The notes under the pieces were generated by a model, which had not been told where the DNA came from, did not search any database, and saw only the letters and a program-made list of their open reading frames with translations. This document shows, piece after piece, positions 348-46,284 of a stretch of DNA of 64,000 nucleotides (position 1 is the stretch's first letter; every line of letters starts with the position of its first letter). This DNA comes from Candidatus Bathyarchaeota archaeon (GTDB lineage: Archaea; Thermoproteota; Bathyarchaeia; JAPDIZ01). The stretch is taken from NCBI GenBank assembly GCA_029259355.1, contig JAPDIZ010000003.1:147710-211709 (forward strand), given 5' to 3'. The position numbers and the translations under genes are program-made.

Positions 348-1249
348 CTAGACACATAAGCCATTATTGGGAGACAGCTTAATCCACACTTCACGTTAAA
401 AATGTATTCCAAAACAAGGAAGAACAAGACATAAATTAAAGTTATTTTTGCATCGAAGAGCGTACACATAAAGCTTTATGTAGCTGAACGAGAGAATCAC
501 TCTAAAAAGTTTTTATGGTTGGTTATTGATGAATAGGGCAAAATTTTCGTCAGAAAAAGAAATCACCGAACTCCTCGATAGTATTGATGCCTTAATAAGG
601 AAAAGATACGGCATCACAACCAAAAACATCGTAGACAGAATAGAAACAACAAACCGCGAACTTATAGAAATTTCAAAAAATTGACACACTAGACAAGAAC
701 ATCAGCATACTCAATGAAAGAACCGTGATTATGCTACGTATACAGTATGCACTAATCGGCAGAACCATCAGAACACTAGTAGGCATCATCCTAATGCTAG
801 CGCAGCTCCTAGCACGTTAACAATTTTGAAGTCCATCTCATTCATTAAATAAGCACTTTCTACGCCGATTTTTCAACTAACTGCCAAAAATAGAAAACAT
901 ATACAACACCCATCAAACACAGGCTTAAAACCCAAAGCAGACCTATACATACTCCCAACAGACCAAACACCAGCCCCCTCGCAACAGTAGGAGCAAACAT
1001 AGTACTACGAAAAACACCAAAATGGAACACCTACAACACTCACAGAATGGATGGAATATTCCTATTCCACAACAATTCCCCGAAAAACGACAGATCACAG
1101 CTACTGCTCGCTAAAGACATAGCAAAAACAGTCTTTGACATTATTAGCGACTAATGGGCAGCATAGCTAATGATGGTAGTAAAGTGTTTTCCCAATCTTC
1201 ACATCGATTCACCGAGAAAACCTAGGAGAATTTCCAGAGAGAAAGAAAG

Positions 1250-1411
1250 GGTTTCGCCAAACAAACTGAATTTGATCGTGTTAAGTTCTTACCACATCAA
1301 TCCAGCATAGGAGGCTTAAGCGATAAACCGCATAACTCCCATCGCTCAAATACCTCCCAAATTCCCAAAACCAACAAACCCAGAACCACCAACCACAGCA
1401 ACCTCTGTCAA
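1250..1411 (-). pseudogene. Decayed relic of a second SDR epimerase 5' end
   Basis: DNA at 1340-1415 visibly parallels 270-345 (..caaatacct.c.aa..c..aaccaacaaacccaga.ccaccaaccacagc.a.ct..gtcaaaacaacc). Minus-strand translation from TTG 1411 gives LTEVAVVGGSGFVGFGNLGGI*. After a frame change it gives YLSDGSYAVYRL (compare YLGERGYTVYLL), then a stop, then IQFVWRN (compare VDFVFCD). Confidence 0.5.
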
Positions 1412-1603
1412 AACAACCCAACGACGCAATACGACTCAACCACGCTTATGAAAAGTATTTGCAGGAGGAGGACACGTCCTCACATTTTACATGGCACAAT
1501 CTACAATTTTTTAAATTAAAGCCGTAATAGAGTGATAGGCTAAGTAGAACAAAAGCAAACGAAACGACCGCGACCATTAAGTCGGAAACCACAGCCCAAG
1601 CGT

Positions 1604-2935
1604 GTGATTATGAAAAAGAAAAGAATTTCACCGTCCTCATTAGTAGTTGTGATAGCTCTTTTTTCCATAATCTTAGGCCTATATCGGCTAATTTTTCTTC
1701 AGAAGACAACATTACCTACGATTCGTCTACTTGAACTAGGCATATTTTCGTTAACTCTATACATATTGTATAAAATTAGAGATTTTTCAAAGATTTTCTA
1801 TAAGAAATTTATTATCTCCAAGAAATTTACTCTAATAGCTAGCATAATAATCGGTTATGTACATTGTGCGTATTGGGCGATAGTCTCGCCTCAGCCAACA
1901 AGCATCGACATACCAAGGTATTCACAATGGACACAAGAACTTGCAGCACACCTCTTTGATCCAATTTTTCTTAAGAGCTTCTTCACCAGCCACCTACTTG
2001 AACCGCTTCCACTCCTTCTCTTTGCAACACTATATAGGCTGGGGCTACCCTTTGAAGCCATCACAACAGTAGTCGTTCCATCTTTCATCGCCTCCTCCGT
2101 CTTTGTTTTTTACAAGCTATCTAAGGAGTTCGTTGATGAAAGAGAAGCTGTTATGGGAGCGCTGATTTTCGCTGTTTCCCCACTACACCTAAAGCTAGCT
2201 CTCGATGTACTCAGGCACACCATAGGATACTTTTTCGCGCTCATAACGCTGTACTTCGCTTGCACTGAGAAAAGAAGAATTCCTTGGAAAACAACCACCT
2301 TTTTGTTGTTGACCGCATTATCTCACGCTGTCCCAGCAGTAACGCTAATTCTAACAGCGATAACCTTTGCAATTATTACGTGGAAAAAGTGGGAGCCTCT
2401 AAAAAGAAGCGAGCAAGAAATTGTTCGCAACAATCTCCTAAAAACAATCGCAATATACTTCGTCTGCGCTCCAATAATAGCTCCCTACACCTATTGGCCT
2501 CTATGGATAGAGATGCGATATTACAAAAAGCTACATTCTTATCTAGAAAAACCCCTACTACTGATGCATCCAGAGGCATTTCATCTCCGTCTATTGACAA
2601 CGACTTGGCTATTTGAATGGTGCTTCTCCATAGCTGTCGTTGGTTTCTTAGGCTTCTACACCGCTTTGAAAAACAAAGAGCTAGAACCTCTACCAACTTC
2701 ACTACTGCTATCAGTGCTTACAACGATTTTATTTGCGCTGCTCTTCCCCTTCTTCCTGTGGAATCAGCCAGATAGATGGGGGCTTATGATAGACATTCCG
2801 CTAACATTCTTCACAATCTACTATATCTCTAATCGATTTAACGACTCAGCTATGAAAGCAGTTTTGATCGTCATGATTTGGACGCTGATAGATTCGATAT
2901 CATATGTTTTTGCTTATGTATTACCAAAGACATAA
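1604..2935 (+). CDS. Polytopic membrane protein, family D (paralog of 13441..14808); function unknown
   Basis: 443-aa ORF whose likely real start is ATG 1610 (MKKKRISP). It has many hydrophobic segments. It shares RLALDVLRHTIGYFFAL / RLVLDLYRQVIAYFFAL and QPDRWGLMIDIP / EPDRWGLTLDIP with the ORF at 13441. T-rich stretches follow the stop. Confidence 0.8.
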   Translation: MIMKKKRISPSSLVVVIALFSIILGLYRLIFLQKTTLPTIRLLELGIFSLTLYILYKIRDFSKIFYKKFIISKKFTLIASIIIGYVHCAYWAIVSPQPTSIDIPRYSQWTQELAAHLFDPIFLKSFFTSHLLEPLPLLLFATLYRLGLPFEAITTVVVPSFIASSVFVFYKLSKEFVDEREAVMGALIFAVSPLHLKLALDVLRHTIGYFFALITLYFACTEKRRIPWKTTTFLLLTALSHAVPAVTLILTAITFAIITWKKWEPLKRSEQEIVRNNLLKTIAIYFVCAPIIAPYTYWPLWIEMRYYKKLHSYLEKPLLLMHPEAFHLRLLTTTWLFEWCFSIAVVGFLGFYTALKNKELEPLPTSLLLSVLTTILFALLFPFFLWNQPDRWGLMIDIPLTFFTIYYISNRFNDSAMKAVLIVMIWTLIDSISYVFAYVLPKT

Positions 2936-3119
2936 GTTTTTGATCGTTTTTAATCGACGACACTACAATTTACAAAAACTTTTCTCCAAATAGGATCAGC
3001 AACTAAACCAGTTAAAGAGAGTTGCTAGCAAATTTGATAAAGCCCTCAACTTCCAAAACTACCATAGTTGAGGTGAAGCAGCCTCGAAAGCGAAAACAAC
3101 TGTAAGCATCATAGTTCCT

Positions 3120-3812
3120 ATGTACAATGAAGAGGAGAACGTAGATATTGTTGTAACTCAACTAATGAATGTTCTCAACTCTTGTGAATTGATTAGCGAA
3201 TGGGAGTTAATAGTTGTAGATGATGGAAGTGTTGACAACACACTTCAAGCTGTGAAAAAGTATGCAAAAGAAGAAGCTCGAATAAGAGTCTTCAGACATT
3301 TCACTAACCTTGGGCTGGGTAAAGCATTAGAAACAGGTTTTAAACAAGCTTCGAAGGAGATAGTAGTTACAATAGATGCGGATTTATCGTATGATCCCAA
3401 AGACATCCCAAAGCTGATTCTTCCTCTGATCCAAGAACCCTATGTAGACATCGTAGTTGGTTCGCCCTATCTAGGAAGAGGTTTGGTTAAAAACGTGCAA
3501 ACATACAGAATAATCCTCAGCAAATTCGTTAACTATTTATATAGGTGGATCACTAGATCATCGCTAACCTGCTATACAAGCATCTTCAGAGCTTATAGAG
3601 CGAACGTCGTTAAAGATTTGAGAATAAAGTCTCGAAGATTTGAGGCACAACCCGAAATTCTCCTTAAGCTAATCCAAAGGGGTTGTAAAGTTAAAGAAAT
3701 TCCTGTTGTCCTAAGGAGTAGGGAAAAAGGAAGGTCGAAAGTAGTATTACCACGTGAGGTAGCTCTACATATCAAGTTATTGGTAGCATTTATCACCAAA
3801 AAAATTAGATGA
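3120..3812 (+). CDS. GT2 glycosyltransferase, dolichyl/polyprenyl-phosphate sugar synthase-like (DPM1/GtrB-like); the 5' end is probably frameshifted
   Basis: Motifs seen: PMYNEEENV, VVDDGSVDNT, TIDADLSYDP. The reading frame stays open upstream to 3072 and encodes KTTVSIIVP, the normal first beta-strand of GT2, but has no ATG/GTG/TTG there. A GTG at 3073 in another frame reads MKQPRKRK. A 1-nt indel around the A-run 3093-3096 would join the two. Confidence 0.85.
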   Translation: MYNEEENVDIVVTQLMNVLNSCELISEWELIVVDDGSVDNTLQAVKKYAKEEARIRVFRHFTNLGLGKALETGFKQASKEIVVTIDADLSYDPKDIPKLILPLIQEPYVDIVVGSPYLGRGLVKNVQTYRIILSKFVNYLYRWITRSSLTCYTSIFRAYRANVVKDLRIKSRRFEAQPEILLKLIQRGCKVKEIPVVLRSREKGRSKVVLPREVALHIKLLVAFITKKIR

Positions 3813-3843
3813 AAAATTTTTTGAGAGAAACGTTGGTAGTAAC

Positions 3844-5184
3844 TTGGTCTCATCCATGAAGGTGTGTGTGGTAACTGGAACAAGACCAGAGATTATCAAA
3901 CTATCCTCGATAGTTTCTAAGCTATCCAAGCGTAATGACATCGATTTCGAATTCTTACACACTGGTCAACACTATGACTGGGAGATGTGGGAGGTTTTCA
4001 TCGACGAATTAAAGCTGCCTAAACCACATCAGTTCTTGGGGGTGAAGTCAGGTACACATGGCAAGCAGTTAGCCAAAGTTATTCAAAGAGTTGAAAGCGT
4101 CCTAAGAGCTTCAAAACCAGATATTGTCGTTGTTGAGGGAGATACGAATTCAGCTCTTGGAGCTGCACTAGCTGCGCAAAAGCTGGGGATTTCTGTAGCA
4201 CACGTTGAGGCAGGGTGTAGATCTCATGACTTTTCAATGCCAGAAGAAATCAACAGAAGATTGATTTCACAATGTGCTACGCTAAATTTTTGCCCTACCA
4301 AAAACACTGCGGTAAACCTTCTCGCAGAAGGTATTTTGCCAGATCAAATTTTCCTTACTGGACACCCCTTAGTTGACGTTTTATATAAAAGCTTAGATGC
4401 AGCTAGCAAAAGCGATGTTTTGGAAAGATTGAGCGTTTCTCCACGCGAATACCTCTGCTTAACGATTCATCGCGCAGAAAACGTAGAAAACTTTGAGAAA
4501 ATGCTGAACATCTTCAAGGCATTAAAAGAAATTGGTAAAGAAATCGTCTTTCCAATCCACCCAAGGACAAGAAAATCTCTTAAAAAATTCGGCTTATGGC
4601 CACCTCCCAAGAACGTTAAAGCAACACCACCTCTGAGCTACTTTGACATGATTAAGCTTGTGAAAAACGCTGAATACGTACTTACGGATTCTGGCGGAAT
4701 TCAGCAAGAGTCATTTCTTCTAGAAGTACCCTGCATAACGTTGAGGGAGAATACGGAATGGGTAGAAACTGTAATTCTTGGAGGAAATTTCTTAACAGGA
4801 ACATCCTATGATAGAATTCTACTAGCTGTGAAAAAAGTAGAGGAAAACCTCAGAGAAATCAGAGCTACTATAGGTAAGCATAAGAAAGTGTTTGGAGAAA
4901 AAGGCGTTACAGACAAAATTCTGCAAATTCTTTTGGACATCGACCTTATACAGAAGGTAAAAACCAAGGGTTTCAGAAGAAAACTCAGTAAAATGTCTGA
5001 ATTTGGACTGCCAGAGTTAGTTGCAAAAAAAGCAGAAGACATCACAAGCGAAAACAAGGACGCCATTATTCAGCTGGTGTTCGATCCCGATGGCCGTCCA
5101 CATCTTTTGAAGAAGAGATCTACAGTCAAGAAAGGATCGACTCTAATCCTATACAGATTTCGTCAACTAAGCTATAACCACTGA
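3844..5184 (+). CDS. wecB: UDP-N-acetylglucosamine (or derivative) 2-epimerase, WecB/WbpI-like, with an extra C-terminal tail of about 80 aa
   Basis: MKVCVVTGTRPEIIKLSSIV, HTGQHYD, PDIVVVEGDTNSALGAALAA, HVEAGCRS, PEEINRR and DSGGIQQE are the classic epimerase_2 motifs. The likely start is ATG 3856. Confidence 0.88.
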   Translation: MVSSMKVCVVTGTRPEIIKLSSIVSKLSKRNDIDFEFLHTGQHYDWEMWEVFIDELKLPKPHQFLGVKSGTHGKQLAKVIQRVESVLRASKPDIVVVEGDTNSALGAALAAQKLGISVAHVEAGCRSHDFSMPEEINRRLISQCATLNFCPTKNTAVNLLAEGILPDQIFLTGHPLVDVLYKSLDAASKSDVLERLSVSPREYLCLTIHRAENVENFEKMLNIFKALKEIGKEIVFPIHPRTRKSLKKFGLWPPPKNVKATPPLSYFDMIKLVKNAEYVLTDSGGIQQESFLLEVPCITLRENTEWVETVILGGNFLTGTSYDRILLAVKKVEENLREIRATIGKHKKVFGEKGVTDKILQILLDIDLIQKVKTKGFRRKLSKMSEFGLPELVAKKAEDITSENKDAIIQLVFDPDGRPHLLKKRSTVKKGSTLILYRFRQLSYNH

Positions 5185-8052: not shown

Positions 8053-9783
8053 CTAACCTAGGTTTTTAACAATCACTTCGAGGCCAAGCGGTGCCACTAC
8101 GTGTTCGATAGCAATTGCTGCAACACAGCTTCTTGCAGCTGCTTCAGACGCTGGGTTATAAAGAGAAAACAGCAGATGAGTGAAAATTATTGCAGAGATT
8201 AGGAGTAGCTTTAGGTTGTTTTCCTCTCTTACGAGAAAAGAGCCTACTATGGCTAGAGAAAAATTGATGACCCCTATAGGATACATAAACCAAGAAATCT
8301 GATGTATGAAATAGTGTGGAGCAAATCTTTTGAAGAAAAGTTGTGTATATCCCACATACGTAGTTGAATGGATAAACATAAAAACCAGAATAAATAGAAA
8401 TCCAATTAAGTAAGAAATTTTTCCGAAAATTTCTTTTGACCATACTCCATCAGCAATTGCTTTTACGGAAGGTAATGAGTAGATTAATATAGCCATAAAC
8501 AACGGGGTAATTGATGTTTCTTTGAAGAAAAAAGCCAACGTAAAGAACAAAGTCGATAAAAAGTAGTATCTATAAACTAAAAACAGTAAGCCTAGCAGCA
8601 GAGGCGCTACAGACCAATGCTCCATCATAAACCAGAAAAACCCCCTAGTGTAGAAGCTTAAGATATACAGTGCTGAGAGAACTCCCACGAAGGAATTGTT
8701 GCTAATTTTTCTAGCTATATAGAATGCGGCAATCACAGAACACGAGCTGATTAAAAAGTATTCTATCTTGATACAAAAAACTGTTTTGCAGAGAGCCCAC
8801 AGGTAAAATAGAATTGACCAATGTATCTGAGACTCCGCTACTGTTGGCCACACAATTTTCCATGCCTCATAAAGACCTATGCCTTCTTTCATACGAATCC
8901 AGATGCTGTAGTAAAGTCTGTCATCACACATGTAAAGATTAGGATCGTTAACAGGTTTCATTGTGAAGTTAAGAAAGAAAAGCCAAGAAATTACAAAAAA
9001 GACAGTTAAGTGATAGCATCGAAGTCTTAGCGTCTTACAGGAAACAAGGTGATTCTCGAGAAACTGATGAAATGACTGAGCAAGATTAGGCTTAATTATA
9101 AGCATTGGAAGAACAACATATGGAATCACGATAGTGGTGCATCTTAGATGATAAAACACTTTCAACATTGCAATAAGAAATATAGGCAATGTTCCTGAGA
9201 TTATTTTAATTAATGTAGATGAAATCAAACATATGGAAAGGACTATTAATGAGAATATAAATAAACGTCTGGCCACAACCCGCAAGTTGGTACTGCAAAA
9301 ATTTTTTACTTTATTTGCAACCAACAGCGTAATCCTTGCAATACCTACTTCCGGAAATACCACATAGACTAGTGTAGTTAGTAAAAAGAGATTAATAGTT
9401 GCAATGATCAAACCACGTAACTCAGTCTGAAAACAGCTGAGAAAATTAGTTGAGTATATATTGGGAAGAAAAAACAAAGTTACACCACTCGGATAACCAA
9501 AAGATGTTATAATTTTATTAATTTCGTCATAAAGATAGGTAGGTGTTGTTGCTATTGCTAGCAGAATCAAAACATAAACTAAAAAAATCGTTCTGAATGC
9601 AAGATACACTGGTGCTTTTTGTACAAGAAGTCGATAAAGCGTTAAGCTGAACAGCATCAGAATACTAACAGCCCAAAAGGGTGTAAATAGGAGGAAGTAA
9701 CTAACAAAAATGGCCGCTATCGTCATAATTTCTTTTCCTTTGTCTCCAATAATTGCGTTTTCGAAGATGACTTTATTTAGCAA
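8053..9783 (-). CDS. Polytopic membrane protein, family A copy 1; function unknown
   Basis: 576 aa, hydrophobic throughout. The conserved C-terminal half carries NDPNLYMCDDRLYY, EGIGLYEAW, CKTVFCIKIEYF, TRGFFWFMMEHW, FFFKETS, FAPHYFIHQISWFMYPIGVINFSLA and SEAAARS. These are shared with 28374, 52100, 59463 and 61269. Confidence 0.85.
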   Translation of the reverse strand: MLNKVIFENAIIGDKGKEIMTIAAIFVSYFLLFTPFWAVSILMLFSLTLYRLLVQKAPVYLAFRTIFLVYVLILLAIATTPTYLYDEINKIITSFGYPSGVTLFFLPNIYSTNFLSCFQTELRGLIIATINLFLLTTLVYVVFPEVGIARITLLVANKVKNFCSTNLRVVARRLFIFSLIVLSICLISSTLIKIISGTLPIFLIAMLKVFYHLRCTTIVIPYVVLPMLIIKPNLAQSFHQFLENHLVSCKTLRLRCYHLTVFFVISWLFFLNFTMKPVNDPNLYMCDDRLYYSIWIRMKEGIGLYEAWKIVWPTVAESQIHWSILFYLWALCKTVFCIKIEYFLISSCSVIAAFYIARKISNNSFVGVLSALYILSFYTRGFFWFMMEHWSVAPLLLGLLFLVYRYYFLSTLFFTLAFFFKETSITPLFMAILIYSLPSVKAIADGVWSKEIFGKISYLIGFLFILVFMFIHSTTYVGYTQLFFKRFAPHYFIHQISWFMYPIGVINFSLAIVGSFLVREENNLKLLLISAIIFTHLLFSLYNPASEAAARSCVAAIAIEHVVAPLGLEVIVKNLG

Positions 9784-11868: not shown

Positions 11869-13455
11869 GTGACGTTCAGTATGCGCGTGCTTCTCATAGG
11901 AGTAGACGGGGCTGCTTGGCAAGTAATTGAGAAATTAATAGAAAGAGGAGAATTACCAACAATCAGCAGGTTATTGCAAGAGGGATGTAAAGGGATATTA
12001 AGATCCACTATTCCACCAAGCTCAGTCCCAGCATGGAACGCTATTACCACAGGGTTAAACCCCGGAAAGTTAGGTATATTGAACAAAATTCATAGAGGCA
12101 CCTACGAATATGTAAGTGCTTGGAACTCCATTTATGAACCACAAATACACATATGGGATTATTTAGGGAAAGCAGGCTACAAGGTGATAATAGCAAACCC
12201 ACCACACATTCCTTACGCATATAGAGTCAATGGAGTTATGCTCGCAGGTTTTACCTGCATAGATATGGAAAAACTCACGTACCCATCTTCGCTTAAGGAG
12301 GAATTGCAACAGGTAGTGGGAGATTATGAAGTAGATGTTTCAAATATTTTTGGAGTTGAAAGTAAGTTAAGAAGAATTTTGAAAAGTAAAAAGATGGTAA
12401 ATAAAGTACTGGAAGTTGAAAATAAACATCATCTAACATTCAGGCATTTGTTGAAAAAATATGCTTGGGATTTCGCGTTTATCGTTTACGTAAGTCCCGA
12501 TAGAATTCAACATATATCCAACAATTTAAAGGAAATTTATAAGATTTATATAGATTTAGACGAAAAGCTTGCAGACATACTTGAAATCATAGGTAATGAT
12601 ACTTATATCTTTTTGATATCTGATCATGGATTTACTTTTAATGCTAAAACTTTCTATATTAATAAGTGGTTAGAAGATAACAAATATTTAAGAAGTCGAA
12701 GAGGAATAAAAACAGCTGCTGGAGACAGATTAAGGAATGTTCTGAGCATCTACATTCCATGGATTACACCAAATGTCATCAGACTTCTACCTAATAAATT
12801 TTTGAGAAAGTTTGAAAGAAAGCTTTCAGTAGTAGAACTCGGGAAAGAAACAATAGATTGGGATAATACGTTAGCATTTAGTTATGGTATCTTTGGAGAA
12901 ATTTGGATCAACTTAAAAAGTGAAAGACCGCGTGGAATAGTAGCTCGGGAGGAATATGATTTATTAGTAAAGAAGCTACACAACGATTTAAAAAAGTTCT
13001 TTGATAGCGAAGGGATAAATGTAGATATTGCGAAAAAAGATGAGGTATGGAAAGGAAGATTTGTACATGGATGCGCTGATCTTGTAATAGTGATAAATAG
13101 CAAATCAGGAATAAAAATAGACCCATCTTTTAGAAGGAAGAGTTGTTTCTCGAGCCGTGTAGAAGGTGGAACTCATAGCATTGATGGCATCTTTATAGCT
13201 GTGGGCCCAGAGATTATGAAAAGTAAACACGTTGGGATAATATCCGCTTACGATTTACTCCCCACCATATTGCACATTTTTCAAGTAGCAATCCCCAGAA
13301 ATTGTGATGGTCGTATTATAAAGGAGCTTTTTGTTAAGGAAAGCAAATACTACCGTAGAGAGCCCATCTATAAGGACTACGATAATAGTCTGTTGAGTTT
13401 AGAATCCAAGTTGAGGAGTATAAGATTTAAATATAGAAAACTAATGAGGAGATAA
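11869..13455 (+). CDS. Alkaline-phosphatase-superfamily enzyme, type I phosphodiesterase / nucleotide pyrophosphatase-like
   Basis: LLIGVDGAAWQVI, TIPPSSVPAWNAITTGLNPGKLGI and FLISDHGF match the metal-ligand and nucleophile layout of the family. The likely start is ATG 11881 (MRVLLIGVDG). No obvious TM segment. Confidence 0.75.
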   Translation: MTFSMRVLLIGVDGAAWQVIEKLIERGELPTISRLLQEGCKGILRSTIPPSSVPAWNAITTGLNPGKLGILNKIHRGTYEYVSAWNSIYEPQIHIWDYLGKAGYKVIIANPPHIPYAYRVNGVMLAGFTCIDMEKLTYPSSLKEELQQVVGDYEVDVSNIFGVESKLRRILKSKKMVNKVLEVENKHHLTFRHLLKKYAWDFAFIVYVSPDRIQHISNNLKEIYKIYIDLDEKLADILEIIGNDTYIFLISDHGFTFNAKTFYINKWLEDNKYLRSRRGIKTAAGDRLRNVLSIYIPWITPNVIRLLPNKFLRKFERKLSVVELGKETIDWDNTLAFSYGIFGEIWINLKSERPRGIVAREEYDLLVKKLHNDLKKFFDSEGINVDIAKKDEVWKGRFVHGCADLVIVINSKSGIKIDPSFRRKSCFSSRVEGGTHSIDGIFIAVGPEIMKSKHVGIISAYDLLPTILHIFQVAIPRNCDGRIIKELFVKESKYYRREPIYKDYDNSLLSLESKLRSIRFKYRKLMRR

Positions 13456-14808
13456 ATAAACAAATGAAAAGGTTAATGAGTCTATTATGATCAGCAATAT
13501 AAGGATACAACATAATAAGGATAAGGATTTTTTGACGTACTTCTCCATTAAAGCTGCTGCAAATACGCAACATGGAATATCTAGCGTCAAACCCCAGCGA
13601 TCTGGCTCTGGCCAAATAATAGGCCAAAGTGCTTGTACTACTAAGAATAAAGTTGTTAAGAATAAGACTAAAAAGAAAATATAATTTTTAAGTTCTTTGC
13701 TTCTTAAAATGAATATTATTGAAAGTACTGTTAACCAAAATACCCATTCAAAAAGTTCGAATGTTAGGTGCAGTTTGTTGTAGAAATATTCTTGCATTGT
13801 AGGACTTAAAAACATTGGATTGGAGATTTGTTCAATAAATATTGATAAGCGATTTGGTTTGAGCCAATTTGCTACACGAATATAAAACATAAGAGAAGTA
13901 CCTGTTAGTAAACATGCAATAATCACCTTTACCAGTTTTGTCAAAAGAGATCTGTCTTTAGTTAACCATATGTATACTATAGTAGATAAGAAGAAGAACG
14001 TTGCTATCGCCTGATGAGAAAGCCACATAGCTGAAATTGCTAAATAAGTTTTAATTGGAAACTTGGGCCTATCTGTAATAATGAAATAAAATGCCAGTAA
14101 TGCAAAAAAATATGCAATAACTTGCCTGTAGAGGTCTAGAACCAAACGCATATGAAGTGTAGAAAATGAAAACAAAATCGTCGCCAGTCTAGTTTGAAAA
14201 CCATCACCATAAAAATGTCTAGAGATCATATAAAAAGGAATTATAGAAAGAGCTGAAAACATTGGAATCAGAACAGTATATATAAATCTGAATGAAAACA
14301 ATTCGAAGAAGAGCCAGAGGATTATCATAGGTAGTATATCATAACCACCCTTAACCGAAAGAATACAAAGTGGATCATCGTGCATCATTTCCAATAATTT
14401 CATGTATTTATAAGTGTCAGAGCCCATAGGTACGGAAGAGAAAACAAACCAGATGCAACGATACAAAAAAGCAAAAATAATCGTAGATAAAAGAAAGAAT
14501 TTACTATCTATTTGTAAAATAATTTCCCCCAATAATCGAAACCTAATTTCGAGGAGATTCTTAACTTTATCCCAAACATGGGGTACGCTGATAAGCGATG
14601 CCCCACCAAAAGTTAAGGCCATTCCAACTTCTAAAATTCTGTAGGAAGGGAGAGTCGGCTTGTATAACCATCTCATAGTTCCGACTATGATGAAAAAAAG
14701 CCCTAAGAGAAAAGCGACATAGGGCGATCTGTTACGTCGCACAGCTATGTTAAAGTTAACTTTGATCACCCCCATTTTATCATAGATCCCATTCATGATT
14801 TTTTGCAA
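13441..14808 (-). CDS. Polytopic membrane protein, family D copy 2; function unknown
   Basis: 455 aa and a paralog of 1604..2935 (motifs listed there). It overlaps the upstream gene at 14793 by 16 nt on the same strand, which suggests co-transcription. Confidence 0.8.
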   Translation of the reverse strand: MQKIMNGIYDKMGVIKVNFNIAVRRNRSPYVAFLLGLFFIIVGTMRWLYKPTLPSYRILEVGMALTFGGASLISVPHVWDKVKNLLEIRFRLLGEIILQIDSKFFLLSTIIFAFLYRCIWFVFSSVPMGSDTYKYMKLLEMMHDDPLCILSVKGGYDILPMIILWLFFELFSFRFIYTVLIPMFSALSIIPFYMISRHFYGDGFQTRLATILFSFSTLHMRLVLDLYRQVIAYFFALLAFYFIITDRPKFPIKTYLAISAMWLSHQAIATFFFLSTIVYIWLTKDRSLLTKLVKVIIACLLTGTSLMFYIRVANWLKPNRLSIFIEQISNPMFLSPTMQEYFYNKLHLTFELFEWVFWLTVLSIIFILRSKELKNYIFFLVLFLTTLFLVVQALWPIIWPEPDRWGLTLDIPCCVFAAALMEKYVKKSLSLLCCILILLIIIDSLTFSFVYLSPH

Positions 14809-16352: not shown

Positions 16353-16726
16353 GCTCCATGATAAAGCAATATTCCAAGGAAGCTCTGGGAGGGATCCTCT
16401 GAAGATATTATAATAGTATCCCGCTACTGCGTAAATATTTTCATCAGATATTAGAGATGGTTTTTCAATATTGAATAATCTTAGGAAAAAAGCAAATAAA
16501 GTTATACTTAAAACTAGAAAAGCCTCCCTCAGATTAAATCTTTTTAAGTACTCTACTGCCTTTGGGGCTATAGTGCAAGACCCCCCTACCGAAGATCAAT
16601 TTTATTTAAACAAATAAAAAGTTTTAGACTCGATTTTCTTGTAAATTCTTCCATCAAGAAGATTAATAACTGACTTACATCATCTCTTTTTCGCGTATCC
16701 TGCAACAGCGTACACACCATCCTCCA

Positions 16727-19094: not shown

Positions 19095-19807
19095 ATGACT
19101 ATAGCCTTAACACGTCTTGACCTAAAGTTTCGAATACATAATGAAAGAGTGTTTAGTATATTTCCTCCGATTAAACTATTTTTCAATAGAAACCCTTTAA
19201 TCAAGTATTTAGAGAGAAAAAGGGCCGCCACTGTTGCTAAGTTATCCAACATTCGTCAAAATTCGCTCAAGCTCGATTTAGGCTGTGGAGACGGATTTAT
19301 TACCAAAGACTTAAGTGGATGTGTAGTAGGCTTAGACCTTTCTAGAAAGGCTCTCCAACTTGCAAAAAGCCTATTTTGTAAAGGATCTAGATTTGATTTC
19401 ATTCTCGGAGAAGCTTCGTCACTTCCGTTTAGGGATGAAGTTTTTGGTGCAGTAGTTTGTAGTGAAGTCTTAGAACATGTCCCCTATCCAGCGAGAACTT
19501 TTGATGAAAAAGTAAGGGTTATGGATAATCAGTCATACCTTATCATCACACTCCCTAAGGAAAGGAACATAAAAATGTGAAACGAATTCTTAAATTACTA
19601 AGGCTATCCAAGATTTTCTTGAGAGAGTTACCAGATGAAGAGATTACAGATAGTTGGCACATAAGTCATATAGAGATTCGGTGGCTAGTCAAAAAACTCA
19701 TAAGAAGCGGGTTAAGACTAAAAGTTCAAGGACGCATCCTATGGTTTTACCCAATTCGATCAATCCTTGTTTTTTACGAAGGCCGAAGATCAAAAGTAAA
19801 GGGCTAG
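19095..19807 (+). pseudogene. Class I SAM methyltransferase split by one frameshift (track ORFs 19095..19580 and 19577..19807)
   Basis: ORF 1 carries LDLGCGDGF, GLDLS, PFRDEVFGAVVCSEVLEHVP and LIITLPKERNIKM*. ORF 2 continues with KRILKLLRL...WHISHIEIRWLVKKLIRSGLRLKV, the expected C-terminal strands. The junction is at the A5 run 19571-19575 (ataaaaatgtga). Confidence 0.7.
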
Positions 19808-27342: not shown

Positions 27343-28031
27343 TGATGGAGCTTACAATCTATGAAGCTAAACTATAATGGGTACTCTACCAGAGATAACC
27401 AAGTTTGCCTCACTTATTCCTTTATTAATAGCTACTTTGACAACATTAGATAGTGTATATAGAGCAACATTTTGACCAATATATGAAAGATAATTTTCAA
27501 AGGAGTAGCCTTAGGCAACCAGATTTCTTAGTTAAAACAGGTTATTCCTCTATCATAGCCTAACAAATAGATGAGATGCCTTAGAACCTCACAAAACGAT
27601 CCAAGAACTTAAGCCAGATTTAGTAATCGTGTTAAGAGACACAAACCCCACACTAGCAAGCGTGTCGACAGCCTCAAAACTGCATATCTGAATCATCCAT
27701 ATAGAAGTAGGTCTAAGATGATTCGATAAATCGTTACCTAACCTAAAGAAATAAACAGGATCTTAGTTGATCATATGTCTACCCTCTTCTTCACCTCTTC
27801 AAAATAGCCGAAGAAAATTTAAGAAAAGAGAGACTTTGTAGAATTAAGAGGCTTGTGGCTCGTTATCCCGAGCTATCCGTTATCCCATACGTGTTTTTAT
27901 TATACGTGTCCATCCCCATACGTGTTATACACCAGAAGTAAATACCAGATCAAGGATGTGAGAAGTATTCTTTTCACTCTCACAGTAAACTTAGAGAAAT
28001 TTATATTTCTTGCTCACCCAAGACTTTCGTA
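27343..28031 (+). pseudogene. Heavily decayed UDP-GlcNAc 2-epimerase (wecB-like) pseudogene
   Basis: Fragments in shifting frames, with stops between them, follow the order of the intact copy at 3844. GTLPEITKFASLIPLL matches GTRPEIIKLSSIV. QELKPDLVIVLRDTNPTLASVSTASKL matches KPDIVVVEGDTNSALGAALAA. IIHIEVGLR matches AHVEAGCRS. PKEINRILVDHMSTLFF matches PEEINRRLISQCATLNF. FIFLAHPRLS matches IVFPIHPRTR. Confidence 0.7.
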
Positions 28032-30211: not shown

Positions 30212-31912
30212 GTGAGAATACTAGCCTTTATTTTTCAAAGATTTTTCCTATTTCCTATTGATTTGTACAGTATTTTTAGGATGGTGGCTATCGCTTTCAT
30301 CTTAACTACCTCATCTATGCTAAGTTTGGCATTTATTGCCGGAAGCGACGTTAGGTATAAGGTATTTGTTGTTGCGGAAGGAGAAGATGAGTTCCAAGAA
30401 GTTAAGCAGGTTTTGGAAAAATCCCTTGAAAACGTAGTGGTTTACGATATCCGCTATGAAAACAACGAACTCGCTACGCTTACGGAGCTTAACTGCGTGA
30501 GAACGATTGTTTTAGTATACGATGGCGACATTCAATTCCTGCTCCAAAGAAATGTCCTTATTAGCTTGGAGAGGGTAGATGAATGCGTGCTTTTTTCCAG
30601 AGGTGAGCTACCTCCCGAGGAGGTTCTGCAAATCCTTGACAGTCTACTGAGATCTAGGCTTAAGGTTGCGAAGAGCTACTCTGAATTAATCAGCAAGCTC
30701 CCCGTGTATAGGCGCAGAAGCTTCTTCAGCATAAACTGGGATACCGAGACATACTTCCTTCTCGTTAGAGCTGTCGGCGTCGCTTCTCTGCTCACCATCT
30801 TCTTTGGCGCTGCTCTCTTGAGTATAACGTGTTTTTTGCTGAGAGCCCTTGTCAGAGATGAGCTAGCTTTCTTTTCGGCATCGCTTACCTCGGCATTCTT
30901 GATCTTTACCACCATACAGATGGCTTACGTCGTATGTAGCTCCGTTTTGGAAATCCCCTTAGGACTGCACTGCACAAAAATAGGATCTAGCCCGTGGAAT
31001 TCGCTTACCATCATAGGTATGTTAGGGCCTTTTGGCGGAGGAACTTTTCCAAGACTTTTCGCTGGGTTAACTGGCTTTTCGCTAAGCACAATCGCTATCA
31101 CGTTAAGAAGAGAAGCTGATGAAGCTGTATGCTATCTACCCTCTCTAAGGACTAGACTTTTCATAGCTTCCTTGGTTCTGGTGGGAGCATACTTTGCGTA
31201 TACCATTTCATCGCTTAATGAACTCATTAACCAGCCCATTGTTGGGGAAGTACTTTGCCGCAAAATGATAAACTCATTCGCCATCTACCAAGATTTGCTA
31301 GTTGGTAAGGCCGTTCCGTCGAGGGGGATAATCCTATACTACATCGGCGTCTCTCTGTTTTGCGCCCTACTCTTAGCGAGGTCTAAGGCGTTCTCAGCAG
31401 CTTCGCCTATAGCGGCTGTTTTGATTGCTTGGGGGTTGATGAGGGTGGGTAATCTCAACCTTGAGCAAGCTATGTGCAGCTCGATTATCGGAGTGATGCT
31501 TGGCTTTGCAACGTTTCTGCTATGCGCAGCGTACCTCAGCCTCCTAAATAATTTTCACAGACTTTCGAGCACGGATGCTAAGAAGCTTCTACACAGCTCT
31601 GAGTTTAGACGAGAAAGCATCGTCTTAACGTGTATAGCGCTTCTCTACTGTACGGCTTGGAGTAAGCTTAGCGGTACTTTACTCCCACTTTTCGCGCTAT
31701 GTACAACATACTTTCTCTTGCGCACCAACTTGAGGAAAAAGCCCTACATAGCAGCGATGTGGATGATTCCAGCAGCTGCTTCTATGCTGCTACTAATGCT
31801 GTGTATACCTACTGAGGTCTTGTTTCCTGCTATTCTCAGCGCATGCGCTGCTAGATGCTTTGACACATATCATAAACCATTCAAAAGACTAAGCTCTGTA
31901 CTGTGCAGTTAG
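30212..31912 (+). CDS. Membrane protein, family B copy 1: N-terminal anchor, a soluble domain of about 150 aa, then a polytopic domain; function unknown
   Basis: 566 aa with a GTG start. Motifs: KVFVVAEGEDEF...LNCVRTIVLVYDG, LEIPLGLHCTK, LGPFGGGTFPRLFAGL, AWGLMRVGNLNLEQ. All are shared with 50251..52011. It lies 56 nt downstream of family A copy 2. Confidence 0.85.
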   Translation: MRILAFIFQRFFLFPIDLYSIFRMVAIAFILTTSSMLSLAFIAGSDVRYKVFVVAEGEDEFQEVKQVLEKSLENVVVYDIRYENNELATLTELNCVRTIVLVYDGDIQFLLQRNVLISLERVDECVLFSRGELPPEEVLQILDSLLRSRLKVAKSYSELISKLPVYRRRSFFSINWDTETYFLLVRAVGVASLLTIFFGAALLSITCFLLRALVRDELAFFSASLTSAFLIFTTIQMAYVVCSSVLEIPLGLHCTKIGSSPWNSLTIIGMLGPFGGGTFPRLFAGLTGFSLSTIAITLRREADEAVCYLPSLRTRLFIASLVLVGAYFAYTISSLNELINQPIVGEVLCRKMINSFAIYQDLLVGKAVPSRGIILYYIGVSLFCALLLARSKAFSAASPIAAVLIAWGLMRVGNLNLEQAMCSSIIGVMLGFATFLLCAAYLSLLNNFHRLSSTDAKKLLHSSEFRRESIVLTCIALLYCTAWSKLSGTLLPLFALCTTYFLLRTNLRKKPYIAAMWMIPAAASMLLLMLCIPTEVLFPAILSACAARCFDTYHKPFKRLSSVLCS

Positions 31913-32502: not shown

Positions 32503-32889
32503 TCCTTAGTTCACTTTTGATAACCCGTAAACTGCTTAAAATTAGAGAAGCATGGTAATCTGTAATTGCCTCCTTTTCGATATTTGTCGTTATCACGCCG
32601 ATAATGCTTTACCTACTTGTTCAGCACATTCCTTTACAATTCTTCTTAACATCCATCCTTCTTCTAATTAGCTATTAGTGCGACATAGCCGATGTACTAA
32701 GACAGTACAGCTCTTCTAACAGACCCCAGTTCTGATTGATTGCAGAAAAATTAAGGGGTAAAGCACAATAAGAGGTCTACGCGGCTACTCTACTCGCTCT
32801 ATGAACAACGGGGGAAATCAGCTATTAGGCAACAAATTGACTCTCAGGAATGGTCGTCAGGTAAAGCGCTCGCAACTGGTTCCTTTGCT

Positions 32890-34380
32890 ATGTTGCTTGG
32901 ATCGACCATAGCAAGACTATTTCAAATTATTTACGTAATCTTTGTTGTACGCCTTCTTGGTCCACAAGACTACGGTCTTCTCGCGCTTGTACTCGCCGTA
33001 ACTGGAGTTATTACTTCAGTAATAGATCCTCACGTAGGTCTCGCTACCGTTAAGCTTTACACAGAGAAGCAAGACCAACACTTTCTATACATCGCCCTCA
33101 TTTTCTATATTTGTGTAGGAGTAGCTTCAGCAGTTGTAATCCTTCTCTTTGGTGATATTGTAATTGCTAACCTAGCTGGGTCGCAAGCTAGCGAACGTCG
33201 TTTTGACCTTGTATTGATCTTTATTAGTCTTTTGATAATATTGATAACTACTAATAGTTTGTATTCAACACTCTTCGAATCCTTCTTTTTATTCAGCTAT
33301 GAGGCGCTTATGATAGCTACTAGACGCATACTCATCTGTATACTTGCAGTAGTAGCTCTGTTTTGGGGATACGGGCTCTTAGGGGTATTTGCCGCAATAA
33401 TCGCCGGGTACTTGATTCCCCTTATAATCCTTATGCCAATAGCTTACGAAATACTAAAAGCGCAAATTAAGACAAGGATTCGTGTAGGCATTCTGTGGAG
33501 CAAATTTGTCGAAGTTCTACAGTTTGGCATTCTTGCCTATATCGCTACCGTCATGTATCAATTTTACACATCATCCGACGTTATCTTAGTTGGATACTTT
33601 AGATCGCTCTGGGATGTTGGACAATATAGCGCAGCACTTCGCTTAGTTAATGTTGTTTTGCTTATCCCATCAGCGTTTATCTCGGTATTAATGCCAGTTG
33701 TGTCGAGGATTTCTGGAGAAAAAACTCTAAGTGAGCGCGAGATATCATCCATAGTAGGACTTACGCTTAAGTATACAATGATCCTAGCAGTACCCTTTTG
33801 CATGGTTTTATCTGCCAATTCTTTCCTAGTGATAACAAGCCTTTTTGGGATTAGTTATCAATATTCGACGGAAGTGCTTCCCCTATTATCAATTTTTGCA
33901 ATATTATTAGCATCTTACATCGTTTTCGACTCTACTTTGGTGGGGTTGGGTAAGCTCATCGAGAGGATATTAGTTTCGCTGACCATGTTAATATGTGGAC
34001 TGATTCTGCACATAGTTCTAATACCTACGATAGGCATATACGGGGCAGCGCTATCTATGCTTCTCTCAGCTGGAATTGGTACTCTCTCTGCTATGTTCGC
34101 TCTTCGCTTAACACCCTCAAATCTCCTGGCTGCTAACGTTGCCAAATTCGCGATAGCCTTAACTCCCTTAGCCCTTTCATCGCTAATAGCAACTACTCTC
34201 ATGAACAGCTTAGCAGGTATTTGTTTGTTAACGATCTCTTTAGCAGGCTATGCTTTGCTGCTTTTGCTTCTAGGAGTAATCGATGAAAAAGATCTCGATA
34301 ACTTCTCAAAAGTATCCATGCTTTCCCCAATTGCTAAATTTGGGAAGAGCGTTCGGAAGAAAGTTTTGAAAAGAGGCTGA
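32890..34380 (+). CDS. wzx: Wzx-like polysaccharide/oligosaccharide flippase (MOP superfamily); the 5' end is probably frameshifted
   Basis: About 12-14 TM segments, with FVVRLLGPQDYGLLALVLAV near the N-terminus. The frame is open upstream (..SGKALATGSFAMLLGST..) with no start codon. An ATG at 32801 lies one frame off, across a G5 run at 32810-32814. Adding one G gives MNNGGKSAIRQQIDSQEWSSGKALATGSFAMLLG. Confidence 0.82.
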   Translation: MLLGSTIARLFQIIYVIFVVRLLGPQDYGLLALVLAVTGVITSVIDPHVGLATVKLYTEKQDQHFLYIALIFYICVGVASAVVILLFGDIVIANLAGSQASERRFDLVLIFISLLIILITTNSLYSTLFESFFLFSYEALMIATRRILICILAVVALFWGYGLLGVFAAIIAGYLIPLIILMPIAYEILKAQIKTRIRVGILWSKFVEVLQFGILAYIATVMYQFYTSSDVILVGYFRSLWDVGQYSAALRLVNVVLLIPSAFISVLMPVVSRISGEKTLSEREISSIVGLTLKYTMILAVPFCMVLSANSFLVITSLFGISYQYSTEVLPLLSIFAILLASYIVFDSTLVGLGKLIERILVSLTMLICGLILHIVLIPTIGIYGAALSMLLSAGIGTLSAMFALRLTPSNLLAANVAKFAIALTPLALSSLIATTLMNSLAGICLLTISLAGYALLLLLLGVIDEKDLDNFSKVSMLSPIAKFGKSVRKKVLKRG

Positions 34381-36346: not shown

Positions 36347-37103
36347 AGATAGATCGTTAAAAAGAGAGGTAGCGAAGTTTTTCGATAAAGATCATGTTAT
36401 CAAGAAGCGGAAACATCCCCCGTGGATGGACAAGGTATACTACCCGCTCTTTAAAGGGCGCGTCCTAGAGATTGGATTTGGTATGCTACTTCCACCACAG
36501 CATTTGAGAAAAAACTACGTGGGTGTAGAGCTTTCAAAACATGCCTTGATGTATGCAAAAGCAAATAATGTAGATTGTGTGTGCGCAGATGGAGAAAAAC
36601 TTCCCTTTAAAAACAAAAGCTTCGAAACAGTCGTCTGTCACGACGTTCTTCCATATTTTCCTAATCCGCAGAATTTTTTGGCTGAAGCCAAAAGAGTCTC
36701 AAACAACAGAATTATAATAATTGATGCGAACTACATCTTAGATAAACGAAGGCTTTCCGAGATGAGCTTGAGAGATGTTGTCAAACTTCTGAGAGAGTTT
36801 ATCACTAAACCTAAATGCTATAGAAGAGCCGGGGATATTTGGAGACACGTCAAGAATGGTGGAGCGATTACGGGAGTTAATTTACGCTTTGTAGAATATT
36901 GGATGAAAAGGGTGGGATGTGAAATAATCTTATCTACTAGCTTTATGTATAATTTCATATCTTATTACATTTTGCTCCAAAAATCTTTAAAAAACTTCAT
37001 CAAACTTACGGTGAGCAGACTACCTTTATTCAGATTTTTAGGTCCGATGATGTTCATAATAGCAAAAGTAGAGTCAATAACGAAACAAAACACTTATGCT
37101 TAG
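36312..37103 (+). CDS. Class I SAM methyltransferase (Methyltransf_11-like), apparently intact
   Basis: VLEIGFG is a degenerate motif I. ADGEKLPFKNKSFETVVCHDVLPYFPNP is also present. It overlaps the 3' end of the upstream gene by 35 nt, and the exact start is uncertain. Confidence 0.7.
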   Translation: MLANWWLKLKDEDRSLKREVAKFFDKDHVIKKRKHPPWMDKVYYPLFKGRVLEIGFGMLLPPQHLRKNYVGVELSKHALMYAKANNVDCVCADGEKLPFKNKSFETVVCHDVLPYFPNPQNFLAEAKRVSNNRIIIIDANYILDKRRLSEMSLRDVVKLLREFITKPKCYRRAGDIWRHVKNGGAITGVNLRFVEYWMKRVGCEIILSTSFMYNFISYYILLQKSLKNFIKLTVSRLPLFRFLGPMMFIIAKVESITKQNTYA

Positions 37104-37817
37104 AATTGCTTTTTAGCGACTATGAGGTATCCTGCTGAAAAAGCAGAAGGTGGTTCTAAGGGTTTTAACACAAATTTCGCAACAACATATACAAAGATAG
37201 CAAAAGGCAACCCAACTAGACGAAGGAAATAGGACGTTGAACGTCGGAGCATTTCATGAAGGGTAAAGAGTATAAAGAACAGTTGACCTTCAACCGACGA
37301 TATAAAAAACAAATTAAGGTCATGTGCTGAGAGAAAATGTCTCAAACCACTTGGTGTAAATCTCCAAAAATCATGCGCGACAAGCACAGAATCCTTACGC
37401 GAAAACCATCCAAAAGCATCGTGAACAGGATAAAAAAAGGAACAAACAGTACCAACTTACCATTGTTTTTAAAACTCTACTTATTTCTTCTATCACAGAG
37501 CGGTAATCTTGTATATGCTCAAGCAAACTTATGCAGAAAACCGCATCCACAGCCTCCTCTTTTATGGGCAGAGCCGAAGCTTCGCCAACGAGTGTAACCC
37601 CATCCTTCTTTACAATATCGATGTTCGCGTAGTTCGTAGTAGAGCATAAATAGCTTTTAACCCAACCAGTTCCTCCACCGATATCAACAACAAAATCGCC
37701 GTGAACAAACTCTGGCAATATTTTTCGTAGTGCTCTTTGAAGAAGTACTCTTACAACGCTCTTGCTATAATATTTATGAAAGGTTTTCCTCCACAATAGC
37801 TTTATAAACGACATCAC
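37100..37817 (-). pseudogene. Class I SAM methyltransferase broken by two frameshifts (track ORFs 37395..37817 and 37100..37387)
   Basis: Reading across three frames restores VVDIGGGTGW...ASALPIKEEAVDAVFCISLLEHIQDYRSVIEEISRVLK / NNGKLVLFVPFF / YPVHDAFGWFSRKDSVLVAHDFWRFTPSGLRHFL. The frame switches fall at the minus-strand A5 run (plus-strand T5, 37466-37470) and the minus-strand T7 run (plus-strand A7, 37432-37438). Confidence 0.75.
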
Positions 37818-44174: not shown

Positions 44175-44454
44175 CTTATCGATTTGTTTATCCTAACTTT
44201 GCTCTTATAACTTTTGCAAAAAATATCTCAGAATTTTATTAGCGGTATATATACTGCCATGCAGTACAGCATATGTAAACTTCCAGAAAAGATTATACTA
44301 AGAAAAGCCGCAAATCGTTGAAGATACCACGGCTAGTATACTCGATACTATATCAGGAAACTACGATGGCTCTGAAGAGGTATATACCAAAATGCGATTT
44401 ATTACAAAAAATTTCAACAATAAGTAAATCGCTTTGAAAATAACCAATAACCTA

Positions 44455-45393
44455 CTAACTGAGATAACTAGAAGCTAAATCGCCAAAAGTTAAAAATTCG
44501 ATATCTTCTTTCTCCTTTAAAAGTTTTATTAGTTTATTCAGCCGATTTAAATTCTTTAAATTAATTCCGTTTCCCAAGAGAATTCCATGATATTCATTTT
44601 CAATATGCGCATGGACAGATACGACACCGCCCAAAGATGCTATCTTTAGAGCGCGGGAAAAATCACTTCGAGCGATGTCGAAGTTCCTCGGAATTAGTAC
44701 TAACTTTCTTGCTTCCTTCTCTAAGATCGTAGGTTTATAGATTGAAATACCCCTTAACCCGCTCCCTTGACACGTCGCATTACGAGAGATTGGTGTTTGG
44801 ATGTCGATCGAGGAAGCGCAGTAGAGATAATCTCTTTTTAAGAGAGCGTGACAAAGACCACAACTTATCCCCCATCCGGGCGGTGAAAAACCTTTAACGT
44901 AAACTAATCCAGCGCTATCCATAATTTTTTCAGCATCTACTAGCTTTTTAATACAACTTTCTTTGTCAAGATCATAAAATTCAGCTGAATGTCTGATAAA
45001 AAGATTTAGATGTGTACATCCATGTATACCGATTTCAAAGTTGCCAGTTTTCACCATATCATTTAAAAAAGCACACCAATTTCTGTAAACATCTGCATCT
45101 AATCTAAAGTAATTGTTTGGCCATTTCTTAACAAAAAACTTACCAACGAGGATGGCCATATTCTTCCCCCCAATTCTGTTTATAAGAATCTGCGTACGCG
45201 CTAGTCCCCTCATTTGGGGAAGGAATAGCCAATTCGGCGTAACGAAAAGCGTGATCTTAACTTCGGGATTGCTATCGATAAACTTTAGGAGAAGCCCTAG
45301 GACCCCTTTCTCTAAATCTCCTCCGCAATCATCGCCAATCACTGAACTCTCAGGGTGCACGTCATCTACTCCTATCACCAAGGACACAGTCAT
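44455..45393 (-). CDS. Polysaccharide deacetylase-like protein (DUF2334/CE4-related)
   Basis: 312 aa with VSLVIGVDDVHPE and FEIGIHGCTHL, a D-D...H-x-x-x-H layout. The functional call is tentative. Confidence 0.55.
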   Translation of the reverse strand: MTVSLVIGVDDVHPESSVIGDDCGGDLEKGVLGLLLKFIDSNPEVKITLFVTPNWLFLPQMRGLARTQILINRIGGKNMAILVGKFFVKKWPNNYFRLDADVYRNWCAFLNDMVKTGNFEIGIHGCTHLNLFIRHSAEFYDLDKESCIKKLVDAEKIMDSAGLVYVKGFSPPGWGISCGLCHALLKRDYLYCASSIDIQTPISRNATCQGSGLRGISIYKPTILEKEARKLVLIPRNFDIARSDFSRALKIASLGGVVSVHAHIENEYHGILLGNGINLKNLNRLNKLIKLLKEKEDIEFLTFGDLASSYLS

Positions 45394-45525
45394 ATTCTTG
45401 CACGTCCGAGTCCAATCAATGGGTCAAATCGTATTCTTTAGCTTGACATCTTCGACATAAGTAATTCTTAACGAGATTGATTGTCATAATCTTTAGAAGA
45501 CTAAAGTATTAGGCCTATAGATGAG

Positions 45526-46284
45526 TTGAGAGGACCCCTAAACTACGCCTCGGAGAGCATTTGCATGTCCTTAGAGGAGAATGGTTGGAGATATGCTTTG
45601 AAAGCTCATGGAATTCAGAGAATTATCCCTGATAATGCCAAGAGGGGAATCGTTCTTGATTTGGGATGCGGAGATGGCAATCTTGCTGCAACCGTCTTTG
45701 GTAAGGAGTCGGTAGAAAGAGTTGTAGGAGTAGATATTTCACCTAACGCTTTAAAAAAGCCAAAAGAAGAATCGGTTCCTTAGTTTTAGGAGATGCTGCA
45801 CACCTACCTTTTCGCGACTTAGCATTTGATGGAGTAATCTGCAGCGCTGTGATTGCGCACTTAACTAGAGACAAAGCTATAGCTACACTACTAGAGGTTC
45901 ATAGAGTGCTTGCTGATGAGGGATTTCTCGTACTTCTTACGGTTAATCGAGAACCACTAAAAGAGAAGATTATGAGGAGAACTAAGAAAATACATTGTTA
46001 AGGAACACATATACGAGTACTCTTATAAGGAGCTAAAGGGTTTGGTAGAAAGCTTCTTCTATATCACAAAAAAATTAGGAGTGCATCTCAATGTTTTATA
46101 TAGTCTTCAAAAACATCTAATTAAATACAAACTTTTTTCCTCTCTTATTAAACGTATGATACGTTTTGCTCCCATCTCTTTGAGTACATGGATGATTCTC
46201 CTTTGCAGAAAAACAGAAGATTCAAAAATCTCAGAGAAAAAGTTGCGTACACAGGGAGTTGCTCAAGGTTTTATAAAACACTAA
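45526..46284 (+). pseudogene. Class I SAM methyltransferase broken by two frameshifts
   Basis: Frame 1: VLDLGCGDGNLAA...VVGVDISPNALKK then PKEESVP*. Frame 2, from the A6 run 45753-45758: AKRRIGSLVLGDAAHLPFRDLAFDGVICSAVIAHL...LADEGFLVLLTVNREPL...KKIHC*. Frame 3, from around the A4 run 45987-45990: IVKEHIYEYSYKELKGLVESFFYITKKLGV... (track ORF 46042..46284). Confidence 0.75.

Follow-up and report, generated by a model that had tools for sequence, protein, structure and literature searches.

Broken reading frames in a surface-glycan gene island of a Bathyarchaeota contig: probable recent pseudogenisation, often beside short homopolymer runs

The glycan island and its disrupted genes

We analysed a stretch of 64 kb, hereafter the window (positions 147,710 to 211,709 of contig JAPDIZ010000003.1, Candidatus Bathyarchaeota archaeon assembly GCA_029259355.1), in which several glycan genes have lost their reading frame or their start codon. 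The window has ~39% G+C and is almost wholly a glycan-biosynthesis island. Its Pfam matches include GT2 and GT4 glycosyltransferases, many GT-C/PMT_2 membrane transferases, and a Wzx-type flippase, and further WecB, DegT, GFO/IDH oxidoreductases, an acetyltransferase, a sulfatase, a phosphodiesterase, AsnB, and five class I S-adenosylmethionine (SAM) methyltransferases. No tRNA and no Rfam family was found when the window was scanned for them. The six genes that are the subject of this work are the following, the 45526 gene and the like being named below after their first position or their site.

19095..19804, + strand: class I SAM methyltransferase (the 19571 gene), 1-nucleotide deletion at 19571-19576 (A5 then T)
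37103..37817, - strand: class I SAM methyltransferase, two 1-nucleotide deletions (T5/A4 at 37466-37474 and A7 at 37432-37438), read in three frames
45526..46284, + strand: class I SAM methyltransferase, -1 lesion at A6 45753-45758 and +1 lesion at A4 45987-45990
3072-3812, + strand: GT2 glycosyltransferase, TCG at 3084-3086 in place of a start codon
14793..16599, - strand: GT-C (PMT-type) glycosyltransferase, first in-frame start at codon 82
32801..34380, + strand: Wzx-type flippase, ATG at 32801 and G5 at 32810-32814 out of frame with the body

The sequence is present in two hydrothermal-vent metagenome runs, X1 and X2, one of them SRR22064146, which represent two samples of one study, and the Logan contigs of these runs, with a word depth of ~5-7x, served to assess reproducibility. 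Searches of the GTDB representative genomes with the repaired 45526 methyltransferase and with DegT gave no close relative; the best GTDB matches of conserved proteins are 35-57% identical and come from Bathyarchaeia, Thermoplasmata, Omnitrophota, and others, which makes an archaeal origin likely.

A sequence-only reading of this DNA had listed nine frameshifts at short homopolymer tracts and compared them with two intact control tracts. All nine tracts could be located, as could both controls (A6 at 8528-8533 and A6 at 16096-16101). The five sites in methyltransferase genes hold as frameshifts, the one at 675-680 lies within a relic, and the lesions near 16581 and 32810 are real but ambiguous in their cause, whereas the site at 3093 is not a frameshift.

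Frameshifts in the methyltransferase genes

Shifts of ±1 are solid at five sites in the three methyltransferase genes, namely 19571, 37466-74, 37432-38, 45753, and 45987. One of them is proven because an intact, 78%-identical ortholog is available, and the other four are shown by the continuity of Pfam profiles. The ortholog of the 19571 gene (P0003, 238 amino acids) was found by a database search, is 78% identical over 227 amino acids, and spans the junction. In a gene-long DNA alignment with 19095-19804 the identity is 77.5%, and a single internal 1-nucleotide gap falls at the junction, where the window reads ACATAAAAA-TGTG and the ortholog reads ATATAAAGATTGTA. Pfam did not show continuity across this shift, the domain ending upstream of it. 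The proportions of nonsynonymous and synonymous differences (pN/pS) are 0.088/0.475 before the shift and 0.186/0.741 after it in the shifted frame, similar to those of intact neighbours; the tail frame is under purifying selection.

In the 37103 methyltransferase, the repaired protein reads ...RVLK/NNGKLVLFVPFF/YPVHDAFGW... across its two junctions, with Methyltransf_23 positions 8-151 aligned, and the third, C-terminal fragment can be aligned to the C-terminal part of a homolog that is intact (VPHDYFRFTPYGLRHL versus VAHDFWRFTPSGLRHF). A scan of JGI metagenomes with the repaired protein returned only a single match of 29% identity. Variant contigs of X1 at low depth (2x) cover 37466-37611 of this gene; one is 87% identical, and the alignment of one starts exactly at the T5/A4 tract. 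They may represent a co-existing strain or a paralog.

The 45526 gene matches Methyltransf_11 positions 1-37 in one frame and 39-95 in the next, with the cut exactly at the A6 run. After both repairs, it scores 70 bits against Methyltransf_11 and aligns with Methyltransf_23 positions 5-156 across both junctions, which are also spanned by remote homologs.

The sequence-only reading had suspected that the broken runs were not randomly distributed, and the counts bear this out. The 52 kb of intact ORFs (open reading frames) contain 673 runs of 4 bases, 294 of 5, 107 of 6, 20 of 7, and 3 of 8, and none of these 1097 runs of at least 4 bases is broken. The five internal shifts are all found in the 2.2 kb of the three methyltransferase genes, among 54 runs that make up 4.7% of the homopolymer runs in coding sequence (p ~2e-7). 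Counted by gene, three of the five methyltransferases are internally broken versus none of ~43 other genes (p ~6e-4). The association of lesions with homopolymers is better than chance and meaningful for A6, A7, C6, and G5; it is trivial for A4, because a run of at least 4 bases occurs every 45 nucleotides in the window.

These counts bear directly on the possibility that the shifts arose as sequencing or assembly errors at homopolymers and that the genes are intact in the cell. Such errors would account for the position of every shift within or beside a homopolymer and for the otherwise undamaged state of the broken genes, and both the low coverage (the ~5-7x word depth) and a sequencing platform that is not on record leave room for them. 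However, the contigs of X1 and X2, built independently from two samples, agree with the window on tract length: they run for kilobases without a mismatch, which implies that the reads are accurate, and they show no indel at any covered tract. The C6 at 16581 was seen in contigs of both runs, both tracts of the 45526 gene are covered without a gap in both, and those of the 37103 gene are covered without a gap by an X2 contig (36558-38088) as well as by short X1 contigs. Error would also have had to spare all 1097 runs in intact ORFs, 130 of them of 6-8 bases, while striking five times in 2.2 kb, and lesions of the substitution type occur in the locus too. Because the lesions recur in two samples, are non-random across runs, and are accompanied by non-homopolymer lesions, error, which the sequence-only reading had put forward as one of three explanations, is disfavoured, and we regard it as highly improbable.

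Another possibility is that full-length proteins are made in spite of the shifts, whether by programmed ribosomal frameshifting or by transcriptional slippage at the runs. The -1 sites are slippery heptamers (A_AAA_AAG at 45753 and, on the coding strand, T_TTT_TTT at 37432), but a one-base deletion in a run yields such heptamers automatically. Downstream RNA folding was better than that of shuffled sequence at none of seven junctions (z +0.1 to +1.9), and one gene would require a -1 event followed by a +1 event. Efficient transcriptional slippage usually needs at least 9 A/T bases, and the runs here are shorter than that. The GeneTack catalogue of reading-frame transitions, reportedly compiled by Antonov and colleagues in 2013, poses the same four-way question of error, pseudogene, phase variation, or recoding, and its recoding class requires a shift that is conserved across orthologs. 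The site at 19571, the sole one testable here, fails this requirement, since its ortholog is in frame. Recoding thus has very little probability in our estimate.

The 5′ ends of GT2, GT-C, and Wzx

The three remaining genes are defective at their 5′ ends. Position 1 of the Pfam GT2 profile falls upstream of the first ATG in the GT2 gene, and its 5′ end is therefore defective. An ortholog (P0041) is intact, 67% identical, and lies within a syntenic GT2-WecB-GFO arrangement. The two DNA sequences align gaplessly across the A4 run at 3093-3096, and the TTG start of the ortholog is placed opposite the TCG at 3084-3086 of the window, which refutes the frameshift that had been placed at 3093. The TCG lies 7 nucleotides after a Shine-Dalgarno motif (GAGGTGA, 3070-3076). 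As judged from this alignment, the lesion is a T-to-C substitution of the start codon in which the A4 run is uninvolved. A 5′ repair that used the GTG at 3073 and lengthened A4 to A5 was dropped on the same alignment. The pN/pS of the GT2 body is 0.27 versus 0.21-0.23 for WecB and GFO.

For the GT-C gene, the open frame of 600 codons begins well before its first in-frame start. Pfam PMT positions 2-233 match residues 30-252 of this frame, and in an exhaustive phmmer search the N-termini of homologs (their residues 2-15) fall on residues 12-30. The first transmembrane helix and the Asp-Glu of loop 1 (SDENIYA) are likewise encoded upstream of codon 82. The 5′ lesion is therefore real. Three elements lie close together here: a G6 at 16581-16586, which reads C6 on the + strand; an out-of-frame TTG at 16599-16597; and, in frame, a TCG at 16592-16590. 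If the G6 were a G5, the TTG at 16599, which is in the third frame, would be joined to the body in a single ORF of 601 codons. Fusion of an upstream ATG frame (MEEFTRK...) across the same run is impossible, as the G of its TAG stop is the first G of the run. The frame at 16352-16595 (- strand) holds 81 codons without an ATG, GTG, or TTG; at an expected frequency of 5.6% for these codons, the chance of such a stretch is ~0.01.

In the Wzx gene, no in-frame ATG occurs before 32890, and Pfam Polysacc_synt position 3 falls five residues upstream of this ATG. The codon at 32854-32856 is an in-frame TCG. Lengthening G5 to G6 would join the ATG at 32801 to the body in a single ORF of 526 codons. A protein database search with Wzx found the protein itself and one match of 23%, with no close homolog. 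The loss of the in-frame start is thus shown in both GT-C and Wzx, and its cause is ambiguous: either a one-base change in the 5′ G-run or the loss of a TTG start to TCG as in GT2. A TCG codon stands at a possible start position in all three genes, and TCG makes up 0.82% of codons; this could be a coincidence or a shared T-to-C mutational pattern.

A further reading is reversible switching. Some of the lesions could be on/off switches that work by slipped-strand mispairing at short homopolymers, so that the glycan coat varies within the population; the best candidates would be the 5′ G-runs of GT-C and Wzx and the single-hit methyltransferase at 19571. The G6 and G5 lie 4-5 codons after the start, a one-base change restores a single ORF in either gene, and G/C runs of at least 5 are rare (48 in the 64 kb). 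The targets are glycan-decorating and export genes, and a methyltransferase is broken in a related genome too. Contingency loci known from Campylobacter, Haemophilus, Neisseria, and Helicobacter have poly-G/C tracts in capsule, lipooligosaccharide (LOS), and methyltransferase genes, and the classic tracts have ~8 bases or more and vary in length within a culture. The island resembles these loci in its glycan-modifying targets, in its two G-runs just after a start, and in that a frame change would switch the gene. It differs from them in that its lesion tracts have 4-7 bases, its longest G/C run has 6, 5′ enrichment is lacking, and double and point-mutation lesions occur. Runs of any base of at least 7 number 29 in the window.

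The first 90 nucleotides of intact genes are indeed not enriched, either for runs of at least 5 (7.9 versus 8.3 per kb in the bodies) or for G/C runs (0.88 versus 0.85 per kb). A single tract would toggle the whole ORF at 19571 and possibly at 16581 and 32810, but not in the two double-lesion methyltransferases, which need two simultaneous corrections. Among the 5′ cases, the GT2 lesion is a point substitution, as those of GT-C and Wzx may be too. With 3093 no longer counting as a frameshift, the earlier observation that three hits lie within the first ~30 codons of a gene is weaker than it seemed. Each covered tract also has a single length in the contigs of the two samples. Because the tracts are no longer than 7 nucleotides, two genes carry two lesions, and 5′ enrichment is absent, contingency switching is not supported, and we consider that any of these lesions is a switch to be unlikely.

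A more specific form of the same idea involves a contig of a related genome (L095, ENA NODE_260), where a different class I methyltransferase at 13976-14639 (- strand) is split by a frameshift. Its fragments cover positions 20-59 of Methyltransf_23 and 40-95 of Methyltransf_11, and after repair the protein scores 62 bits over positions 1-95. The break falls at about Methyltransf_11 position 40, where an A6 run lies in an AKKK stretch rich in Lys; this is the same fold position as that of the break at 45753. It is conceivable that two kinds of short run serve as reversible glycan switches of low rate, namely G5-G6 just after the start and A5-A7 in the Lys-rich helix that follows motif I in sugar methyltransferases, and that the methyltransferases split at Methyltransf_11 ~37-40 in the two related genomes are two OFF states; we give this proposal only a slim chance of being right. 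A/T tracts no longer than 7 bases are reportedly 5′-enriched in bacteria and archaea, which favours switching at tracts as short as these, and have been argued to be general inactivation devices, archaea included (Orsi et al. 2010, PMC2831843). In Listeria inlA, reversion from A6 to A7 was measured at ~5.5e-7 (PMC2831843); at such a rate, revertants would exist in any large population and be invisible at a depth of ~5-7x. Such a short-tract device of inactivation and reversion, if true here, would not be new. Tract lengths that differ among reads would, if seen, be evidence that homopolymers switch glycan genes in a lineage that is uncultured and possibly archaeal.

Gene decay and turnover in the island

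Beside the six genes, the window contains three remnants.

529..817, + strand: small ORF relic; by six-frame reading, the frame 484-681 continues in 668-817 across A6 at 675-680
1322..1418, - strand: duplicated, frameshifted 5′ fragment of an NAD-epimerase gene, in direct repeat with 251-345
27611..27804, + strand: relic of a paralog of UDP-GlcNAc 2-epimerase (WecB), with two in-frame stops and one frameshift

The relative L094 is syntenic with the window (sulfatase 70%, GT2 82%, methyltransferase 78%, and AsnB 81% identical), and a stretch homologous to the small ORF lies there at 1306-1455, upstream of the orthologous membrane-protein gene. This stretch stays in one frame across the junction and has two in-frame stops. 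The ORF is a relic in both the window and L094, and a frameshift at 675-680 is plausible. Contigs of X2 and of a marine-sediment run, X3, track the window to 561 and then switch to other sequence (GAAAACAACTTCATAGCCGCTGCAGAAAAA); position 561 is a strain-variable junction inside the small ORF and possibly the edge of the glycan island. The epimerase repeats, 251-345 and 1322-1418, are ~1.07 kb apart and 79-89% identical. The fragment translates as VVLTEVAVVGGSGFVG and then changes frame (after GSGFVG), and the intact copy extends past the left end of the window. Between 346 and 1603 there is no convincing gene, and the + strand is rich in A+C throughout. The WecB relic, found by tblastn, matches residues 91-153 of the intact WecB (3844-5184) at 45% identity and sits in 1.1 kb without another gene. 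The start-codon substitution in GT2, the two nonsense codons of the WecB relic, and the epimerase 5′ relic go beyond what homopolymer error could produce.

Losses are not confined to the window. An intact 373-amino-acid methyltransferase fused to Trm112 (21758-22879) is reduced in L094 to a C-terminal remnant (12693-12984, - strand) that adjoins AsnB and carries stops and a frameshift. The window and its relatives have therefore lost different members of the island, in both directions.

Of the three explanations offered from the sequence alone, fixed pseudogenisation is the best supported. We consider it probable that the lesions reflect fixed and recent pseudogenisation in a fluid surface-glycan island, that is, real mutations of the dominant genotype rather than sequencing errors or a demonstrated switch. 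Disruption relative to an intact ortholog was found at 19571 (against P0003) and at the 3084 start (against P0041); for the remaining broken genes, database searches found no close orthologs. The lesions are reproduced in the contigs of X1 and X2, the one at 32810 in X1 only. Two genes have a second frameshift. However, the pN/pS of the broken genes, the tail after the shift included, equals that of intact neighbours, and the lesions are therefore recent.

In such a scenario, single-base indels at short A/T runs, of the kind made by replication slippage, would have inactivated three methyltransferase genes, and two of these would then have taken a second hit, as neutral decay predicts. The GT2 gene lost its start codon through a T-to-C substitution, and GT-C and Wzx lost their in-frame starts, either through a one-base change in the 5′ G-run or through a start-codon substitution. 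The relics with stop codons are older debris, and the relatives have broken or lost other members of the same gene set. Overall, this would amount to the usual turnover of genes in a hypervariable glycan locus in which the decorating enzymes are hit preferentially.

Several points weigh against pseudogenisation. The evidence consists of contigs at ~5-7x depth, and contigs hide minority tract lengths; the G5 at 32810 is covered by a contig of X1 only, which ends 5 nucleotides past the run. The sequencing platform is not on record, and a search of papers for the run accession gave no result. The broken genes have no nonsense codons or decay beyond the lesions listed, and in this respect they would look alike under a switch or an error. 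Finally, a G5 or G6 stands a few codons after the start in two membrane genes, much like a classic 5′ switch tract.

Gene flux and decay are known from hypervariable O-antigen, capsule, and archaeal N-glycosylation islands. The island shares with them a partial synteny with relatives at 58-82% protein identity, members that are intact in one genome and broken in another, and relics between genes. Gene flux and decay of this kind fits best among the known categories, with no essential difference. A comparable single-gene case is inlA of Listeria monocytogenes, a pseudogene made by a homopolymer frameshift from A7 to A6 (Orsi et al. 2010, PMC2831843). As in inlA, an indel of one base within an A5-A7 run cuts short a surface-related gene that is otherwise intact, and the lesion is fixed in the lineage and in principle revertible at a low rate. 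Unlike in inlA, the lesions fall on several genes of a single island and strike two of these genes twice, neither reversion nor polymorphism was seen in the contigs, and the host is an uncultured vent organism.

Gene decay of such a kind in glycan islands is already known, and the island adds one more example in which decorating enzymes, here methyltransferases, are lost first and the losses differ among relatives. For annotation, at least six island genes should be marked as disrupted and not silently repaired, one of them for the loss of its start codon.

Two further regions had been suspected of containing split genes. The first, 57019-57713 (- strand), is in fact an intact HEPN and nucleotidyltransferase (MNT-type) gene pair embedded in the glycan island, likely a toxin-antitoxin module. 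For the second, the overlap at 57909-59283, domain evidence for a split was not found. The longest homopolymer of the window, a T10 at 59074-59083, is non-coding and lies right after the stop of the GT4 gene at 57909-59069. ORFs of ~570-590 amino acids occur as three tandem pairs, at 28374-31912, 50251-53851, and 59463-63011 (+ strand). Four of these ORFs were scanned against Pfam without a match, and two, 30212 and 50251, both match one 550-amino-acid gene of L094 at 26-29% identity. These ORFs may form an uncharacterised family specific to such islands.

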